The notes beneath the pieces are model-generated. The model saw nothing but the letters and a program-made list of their open reading frames with translations. It did no database searches and was not told where the DNA came from. Positions 38,238 to 38,809 of a DNA stretch of 64,000 nt are shown in pieces (positions within the stretch are counted from its first letter, which is position 1; each line of letters begins with the position of its first letter). The stretch lies in NCBI RefSeq assembly GCF_058153355.1, contig NZ_CM177019.1. One strand, written 5' to 3'. A program made the position numbers and the translations under genes.

Positions 38238-38448
38238 GGTGGGCGATTCTAATTAGCCAACAGGATTCGCGCCACTCATTTTTCTATGCTTATATTTAGT
38301 TTTGCACCTTATTACTTCACTACGTCATCACTTTATTGATGGTTATTAAACCAATCACCATTAAGAAGTGAAAAAACTGTGAGTAAGCGGGTGATAAATG
38401 GTAAAAGTCATCTTGCTATAACAAGGCTTGCAGTGGAATAATGAGAAC

Positions 38449-38809
38449 GTTTCCGTGTCCATCCTTGTTAAAACAAGAAATTTTACGGAATAACCCATTT
38501 TGCCCGACCGATCATCCACGCAGCAATGGCGTAAGACGTATTGATCTTTCAGGCAGTTAGCGGGCTGCGGGTTGCAGTCCTTACCGGTAGATGGAAATAT
38601 TTCTGGAGAGTAATACCCAGTCTGTTTCTTTGATAATTGCGCTGTTTTTCCGCATGAAAAACGGGCAACCGACACTCTGCGCCTCTTTGAGCTGACGATA
38701 ACCGTGAGGTTGGCGACGCGACTAGACACGAGGCCATCGGTTCACACCCGGAAAGGCGTTACTTTGCCCGCAGCTTAGTCGTCAATGTAAGAATAATGAG
38801 TAAGTTACG
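38449..38809 (+). promoter_or_regulatory. rne long structured 5' leader (autoregulatory); start approximate
   Basis: About 570-nt gap between rluC and rne with no credible ORF; established long rne 5' UTR. Confidence 0.5.

Follow-up and report, generated by a model that had tools for sequence, protein, structure and literature searches.

The rluC–rne intergenic spacer

The stretch of DNA that we analyzed, 64,000 nucleotides in length and referred to here as the window, contains an intergenic spacer of exactly 572 bp at positions 38238..38809, which separates the start codons of two divergent genes. Its left neighbor on the minus strand is rluC (37278..38237), a 319-aa ORF for a 23S rRNA pseudouridine synthase with the Pfam domains PseudoU_synth_2 and S4, annotated as rluC in Escherichia coli K-12 and in strain 2013C-4282. 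On the right, rne (38810..41995, plus strand) encodes RNase E as a 1061-aa ORF carrying the Pfam domains S1, RNase_E_G, RNase_E_G_Thio and PNPase_C. The measured length agrees with the gap of about 570 bp between rluC and rne that the initial annotation had described. According to the K-12 annotation, this is the longest intergenic spacer of the neighborhood, the others measuring 51–198 bp.

The order of genes in the window (flgL, rne, rluC, yceF, sraB, yceD, rpmF) is that of K-12, and the window is E. coli chromosomal DNA. The spacer was found in 5425 of 5426 complete E. coli genomes; many copies are 100% identical to that of the window and most share 95–99% identity. In the same search, 11 of these 5425 genomes matched over less than 80% of the spacer length, some genomes carried it in two places, and five places were located on plasmids. 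Such partial, extra or plasmid-borne copies could reflect an rne regulatory region that was interrupted by an insertion or duplicated.

To extend the comparison beyond the species, relatives were retrieved by the exact 16-nt motif GCAATGGCGTAAGACG, which corresponds to the apex of the second leader hairpin (hp2, see below), taking one genome per species. This yielded 120 loci, 98 of which have an RNase E start (M-K/R-RMLINAT) downstream on the same strand, at a distance of 279–312 nt in nearly all cases; counted from the MKRMLINAT start, the hp2 apical motif lies 279–312 nt upstream in 86 loci from many genera of Enterobacterales. The motif loci span Escherichia, Citrobacter, Enterobacter, Kosakonia, Pantoea, Erwinia, Serratia and Yersinia, together with Dickeya, Pectobacterium, Hafnia, Edwardsiella, Photorhabdus, Xenorhabdus and others. 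At every motif locus with enough flanking sequence, rluC is the divergent neighbor, and in most of the approximately 88 Enterobacterales loci whose flanks allow the measurement, the distance between the two genes is about 552–600 bp. Because both the length of the spacer and the divergent rluC are kept across Enterobacterales, the long spacer represents a conserved architecture rather than a chance gap.

Identification of the rne5 leader element

A scan of the whole window against Rfam placed the RNase E 5' UTR element (rne5, RF00040) at 38449..38785 on the plus strand, with a score of 260.1 bits (E = 1.5e-80) against a gathering score of 180 bits. The match is not truncated and covers model positions 1–333 of 333. 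It was reproduced when the spacer sub-region (38150..38900) was scanned alone, and a permissive scan of this sub-region (E up to 1) returned rne5 only, with no second RNA family or small RNA. With its end at 38785, the match lies directly upstream of the RNase E coding sequence, whose start codon is at 38810 on the same strand, and it forms the structured body of the 361-nt rne 5' UTR.

Compared with K-12 MG1655, the spacer is 99% identical, with 8 substitutions and no indels. All eight substitutions fall upstream of position 38449 (Fisher p = 3e-4 for 8 of 8 in the upstream 211 nt), including two at 38446-38447, in the discriminator of the main rne promoter P1, and one at 38299, in the start region of the upstream promoter P3. 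The 361 nt from 38449 to 38809 are base-for-base those of K-12 1144368..1144728. The window thus has the same element as the K-12 rne 5' UTR (RF00040), and the two also agree in promoter hexamers, neighboring genes and spacer length (572 bp). On this sequence identity, the leader in the window is the known E. coli rne 5' UTR element and is already known in every testable respect. The initial annotation had read the whole gap as consistent with a long structured rne leader. That reading is supported for the leader itself, through the RF00040 match, the identity to K-12 and the covariation presented below; it does not extend to the upstream 211 nt, which are divergent promoter and regulatory DNA. 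The leader predicted for P1 comprises only the downstream 361 nt (38449..38809).

Structure of the leader and its covariation

The positions of the helices were obtained by projecting the Rfam consensus structure onto the window; all leader elements lie on the plus strand. The leader begins with the 5'-terminal hairpin hp1 (38451..38490), whose 11 pairs are all present in the minimum free energy (MFE) fold and all show compensatory changes. A 9-nt AU-rich single-stranded linker, ss1 (38491..38499), follows and is unpaired in both the Rfam and the MFE structures. The sensor stem-loop hp2 (38500..38556), which has the Rfam structure and is identical to that of K-12, contains a conserved 8-nt internal loop within 38521..38536, in which CA faces GUAAGA (5' and 3' strands, respectively); this loop is reported in the literature to be bound by RNase E. 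Its lower stems covary, as in the column pair 79/114, where 33 sequences carry CG, 27 carry AU and 10 carry UA. The apex of hp2, ACGCAGCAAUGGCGUAAGACGU, is highly conserved (upper-case) in the Rfam consensus. In our 87-leader alignment the apex is invariant by construction, since it was the motif used for selection, and the sample is biased to Enterobacterales; its conservation is nevertheless independent of our sampling, because the upper-case Rfam consensus shows it as well.

The remainder of the structured body is hp3 (38562..38776), a large branched domain of the Rfam structure with two closing stems and three internal hairpins. The MFE fold recovers 51 of its 56 pairs, and helices 7–16 are 63–100% paired across the alignment, with many two-sided changes. 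The leader ends in ss3 (38777..38809), a 3' tail that is unpaired in the Rfam structure and carries the ribosome-binding region (..AAUGAGUAAGUUACG, followed by AUG); mean conservation over 38786..38812 reaches 93% in 79 loci.

Covariation was evaluated on 87 distinct leaders that had been aligned with MAFFT in a structure-blind manner. Standard pairs occupy 88.3% of the sequence-by-pair cells, compared with 33.5–43.8% when the 3' partners were slid by 1–3 columns. Compensatory changes on both sides occur in 52 of the 84 Rfam pairs, against 28–34 in the slid controls, and none of 500 column shuffles reached any of the observed pairing measures. Of the 84 Rfam pairs, 73 also appear in the MFE fold computed from the window sequence by itself. 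The folding energy of the leader is unremarkable: at -103 kcal/mol, the MFE does not differ significantly from the average of -99.6 for shuffled versions (z = -0.62), 27 of 100 of which are at least as stable. Because the folding energy is not below that of the shuffles, the case for structure rests on the covariation and the covariance model. The hp1/hp2/hp3 architecture is kept in evolution through compensatory substitutions. Structure prediction and comparison with the known rne leader hairpins, the check proposed in the initial annotation, lead to the same element by way of the full-length RF00040 match, the pairs recovered by the MFE fold and the covariation.

The rne leaders of other Enterobacterales (Yersinia, Serratia, Pantoea, Erwinia, Dickeya, Pectobacterium, Photorhabdus, Edwardsiella and others) have the same hp1, hp2 and hp3, the same P1 hexamers and ribosome-binding tail, and the same divergent rluC, whereas the sequences of their helices differ from those of the window through compensatory changes.

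In eleven loci the rne leader is about 105–130 nt longer. These belong to Kluyvera (L031, L111, L113), some Citrobacter (L038, L075, L114) and Pseudocitrobacter (L042, L076), along with L079, L065 and L036. The additional sequence is inserted in the multibranch junction of hp3, right after ..CTTACCGGTA, at a point that corresponds to window position 38590/38591; it is absent from the window. It is a dispersed repeat, of which matching E. coli genomes carry a median of 5 copies at 60–80% identity, and none of the 8 hits listed coincides with an annotated feature. We take it to resemble an ERIC/IRU element. The rne autoregulatory leader evidently tolerates a mobile repeat at the hp3 junction.

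Promoters and transcription start sites of rne

The main rne promoter, P1 (38413..38442, plus strand), consists of a -35 hexamer TTGCTA (38413..38418), an 18-nt spacer and an extended -10 element TG-g-AATAAT (AATAAT at 38437..38442). Within 38100..38900 there is no other sigma-70-like site; 9 of its 12 hexamer positions match, and the TG is present in addition. Across 79 Enterobacterales loci both hexamers are 100% conserved; TGGAATAAT at P1 is 91–100% conserved, and a conserved AAAGTC lies just upstream of the promoter. The RF00040 match begins 7 nt downstream of the end of the -10 hexamer, and the predicted start of transcription from P1, at about 38449, lies 361 nt upstream of the ATG. This distance equals the published length of the E. 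coli rne leader, 361 nt (PMC10989929). The sequence evidence thus speaks strongly for an rne start far from the start codon, as the initial annotation implied: the invariant P1 stands directly upstream of the Rfam match, in agreement with the published leader.

The discriminator of P1 reads GAGAAC in the window and GAGGCC in K-12 (38446-38447), and is therefore less GC-rich; this segment is variable across genera. The change at 38446..38447 could alter the kinetics of P1 or its sensitivity to ppGpp.

A second promoter, P3, is located upstream at 38288..38300 on the plus strand, with an extended -10-like box TGcTTATAT and an approximate start at 38300 (+/- ~4 nt). The supplement of Mendoza-Vargas 2009 (PMC2760140) maps a transcription start of rne to -510, which lies 4 nt away from the known promoter rnep3 and is associated with the box tatgCTTATATTtact. 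The box tatgCTTATATTtact also occurs in the window, where the -510 start maps to about 38300, so that P3 would give rise to a leader of about 510 nt in a minority of transcripts. In a reporter study, the rne promoters P1–P4 were all placed within 555 bp upstream of the ATG (PMC8361080).

The same K-12 supplement lists a 5'-RACE end at -54 from the rne ATG, with a weak -35-like match (PMC2760140). This end corresponds to window position 38756, within the 3' strand of the hp3 closing stems, and the scan of 38100..38900 found no sigma-70-like promoter near it. Since there is no convincing promoter and the position lies inside an hp3 stem, the end at 38756 is more likely a processing product than a promoter start.

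Features of the upstream 211 bp

Conservation of the upstream part of the spacer (38238..38448) among the 79 loci is concentrated in three blocks: P1, the segment 38269..38297, which includes TGcTTATAT, and the bases adjoining the rluC start. Within the second block, 38269..38283 (GCGCCAC-TCA-TTTTT) shows 92–100% identity at most positions in the 79 Enterobacterales loci and lies between the rluC start and the -10 element of P3; it may be part of the rluC promoter or of rne P3. The promoter of rluC is presumably also contained in these 211 nt. The interval 38298..38376 is AT-rich and poorly conserved among the same loci.

A double DnaA box, TTTATCACCCgcTTACTCACAG, is present on the minus strand at 38377..38398, 15 nt upstream of the P1 -35 hexamer, as the single exact match in the window. 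A DnaA ChIP-seq study of 2024 listed a weak peak designated '(yceQ) rne' at K-12 position 1144772, with the double box TTTATCACCCgcTTACTCACAG (PMC11317965). Enrichment at this peak was 5-fold, whereas several established sites, among them oriC, datA and DARS2, exceeded 100-fold (PMC11317965). Across Enterobacterales, conservation of the double box is only about 57%, and outside Escherichia it is poor.

Scans of 38100..38900 detected no terminators and no minus-strand sigma-70-like promoter. In 38238..38460, the search for repeats found only weak inverted repeats of 10–17 nt with 71–90% complementarity.

Open reading frames in the spacer and the status of yceQ

Among ORFs of at least 30 aa, the spacer contains two on the antisense strand, one of 122 aa at 38361..38729 and one of 62 aa at 38549..38737. 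The sense strand adds three short ones of 39, 30 and 34 aa, of which the 39-aa ORF at 38441 begins upstream of the P1 start. The statement in the initial annotation that the only ORFs here are antisense or of low complexity was correct as to the antisense frames, and had overlooked the three short sense ones. Its broader claim, that the gap has no credible coding potential, is supported, the antisense frame being broken in most other genera and the sense ORFs at 38541 and 38591 being unconserved. These two sense ORFs were rejected as coding sequences: their start codon is present in only about half of the 87 leaders, and the lengths of the resulting frames are scattered between 1 and 74 codons.

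The antisense ORF equivalent to K-12 yceQ (b1085) occupies 38361..38675 on the minus strand, with a GTG start at 38675 inside the 122-codon ORF. It spans 104 aa in the window and 106 aa in K-12, since one of the 8 substitutions introduces a stop two codons earlier; another causes a non-conservative Ala-to-Phe replacement. While yceQ is annotated in K-12 MG1655, it is uncalled in PGAP-annotated E. coli genomes. Searches with the YceQ (DUF2655) antisense ORF gave no match to Pfam-A (E up to 0.01) and none to NCBIfam (E up to 0.1). Among 92 Enterobacterales loci, the frame is open over approximately its full length only in Escherichia and in three other loci; in most other genera it is interrupted by 1–6 stops or reduced to short fragments, even though the DNA sequence itself is kept. 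The antisense yceQ ORF is probably not a real gene.

Interpretation of the spacer

The spacer almost certainly serves an E. coli strain as the regulatory region of its RNase E gene and combines upstream promoter DNA with the structured autoregulatory leader. It is very improbable that the spacer instead encodes a small minus-strand protein, YceQ, whose presence would account for the conservation. The annotated K-12 gene at the equivalent position speaks for this, as do the ORF that remains open in the window and in Escherichia relatives and the listing of yceQ as essential in the Keio and PEC collections, as quoted in PMC5821084. On the other side stand the lack of a Pfam or NCBIfam match and of PGAP calls in other E. 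coli genomes, the disrupted frame in most other genera, and the Ala-to-Phe change and early stop in the window. Moreover, conservation of the spacer tracks the RNA helices, with their compensatory changes, and not the codons of yceQ. As for essentiality, TraDIS and CRISPRi studies indicated that yceQ is not essential, that its apparent essentiality comes from the rne promoter and leader within it, and that guides or transposons blocking transcription in the rne direction are deleterious (PMC5821084, PMC6242692). Insertions in one orientation and guides on the coding strand were tolerated (PMC5821084, PMC6242692), which is the reason to explain the apparent essentiality by the internal rne promoter and leader. 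The location of these elements shows why the antisense 'gene' seems essential in deletion collections. Even less probable is the view that most rne transcription begins near the ATG, for instance at -54, with the long upstream stretch serving only as promoter or spacer DNA. The directed 5'-RACE end with its weak -35-like match favors such a start, but a processed end is plausible at that position, the invariant P1 sits 361 nt upstream of the ATG, and a leader of this length is consistent in the literature (PMC10989929, PMC11321048). In addition, 52 base pairs with compensatory changes would be unexpected for mere spacer DNA.

A further reading adds to the feedback by RNase E a second regulatory layer, exerted by DnaA upstream of P1, by antisense transcription toward rluC (an excludon), or by both, and acting on rne or rluC. 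It is compatible with the regulatory-region reading and may be the sole place for possible novelty, and we consider it unlikely. The ChIP-seq double box close to P1, the listing of rne-yceQ by ExcludonFinder as a divergent overlapping transcript pair from RNA-seq coverage, and the conserved block 38269..38283 all point in this direction. Against them, the limited conservation of the DnaA box, its modest ChIP enrichment relative to established sites (PMC11317965) and the absence of a minus-strand sigma-70-like promoter from 38100..38900 weaken the proposal. The more specific version, in which 38238..38448 would carry a second layer of control on RNase E synthesis through the DnaA double box, an antisense excludon or the block GCGCCAC..TTTTT at 38269..38283, is slightly less likely again. 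If it were true, the DnaA double box could couple RNase E production to replication status.

Proposed autoregulation and comparison with known systems

The K-12 rne 5' UTR was reportedly characterized by Jain and Belasco in 1995, Diwa et al. in 2000 and Schuck et al. in 2009, and the last two are said to have identified the internal loop of hp2 as the RNase E sensor. Because the leader sequence is identical, we adopted the K-12 mechanism for the leader in the window. When the activity of free RNase E exceeds the supply of substrates, the enzyme would bind hp2 and cut the leader. The cut would leave a 5'-monophosphate end, leading to faster destruction of the remaining rne message and thus to less RNase E; when RNase E activity is low, the message would live longer. 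The whole would operate as a negative feedback loop acting in cis on the stability of rne mRNA. For the window we infer RNase E binding, cleavage and feedback from the identity to K-12.

Several published observations describe this mechanism in E. coli. As summarized in PMC3997798 and PMC10989929, which cite Jain and Belasco (1995), RNase E sets the decay rate of its own mRNA through the cis-acting 5' UTR; direct binding of the enzyme to the leader stem-loop is likewise reported in PMC3997798 and PMC11321048, which cite Schuck et al. (2009). The primary cut in the UTR is insensitive to RppH, and decay of the coding part then needs the 5'-monophosphate sensor (PMC3997798). Cleavage of the E. 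coli leader takes place in single-stranded region I, which is ss1 (PMC11321048), and the non-catalytic C-terminal half of RNase E is required for autoregulation (PMC3997798, PMC11321048).

The leader in the window is of the gamma-proteobacterial class I. The 'class II' rne 5' UTR of Caulobacter crescentus is likewise a long structured leader that is needed for autoregulation of RNase E and is cleaved by it; in contrast, it is unmatched by the Rfam family, has a shorter ss1 and a longer ss2, and is cut in ss2 and not in ss1 (PMC11321048). The same logic, in which sites within or close to the 5' leader let a nuclease destabilize the mRNA that encodes it, applies to rnc (RNase III), pnp (PNPase) and rny (RNase Y of Bacillus subtilis) (PMC3997798, PMC10303841). 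However, these systems involve different enzymes, RNA structures and cleavage chemistry, and their leaders have no sequence or structural homology to the rne leader.

Since the mechanism is already established for the K-12 sequence, to which the leader is identical, its presence in the window adds no new biology. Recognizing the rne leader in the window has mainly annotation value: it accounts for a conspicuously long gene-free gap and warns against calling ORFs there.

Other features of the window

At the left edge of the window, a 432-aa ORF (79..1377, plus strand) directly precedes an Rfam Intron_gpII match at 1382..1458, which scored 65.5 bits against a threshold of 40. By eye, we take this ORF to resemble a group II intron reverse transcriptase/maturase, and the ORF at 1532..2353 on the minus strand, next to the intron match, to be sirtuin-like, presumably cobB. 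The segment 79..1458 appears to represent the whole or the 3' part of a group II intron. Three more Rfam matches scored above threshold: the small RNA SraB (36420..36588, minus strand, 209.8 bits), in agreement with K-12 sraB beside yceF; the REP-derived nucleoid-associated RNA naRNA4 (17352..17427, minus strand, 70.9 bits); and the PyrC leader (60500..60549, plus strand, 68.7 bits).
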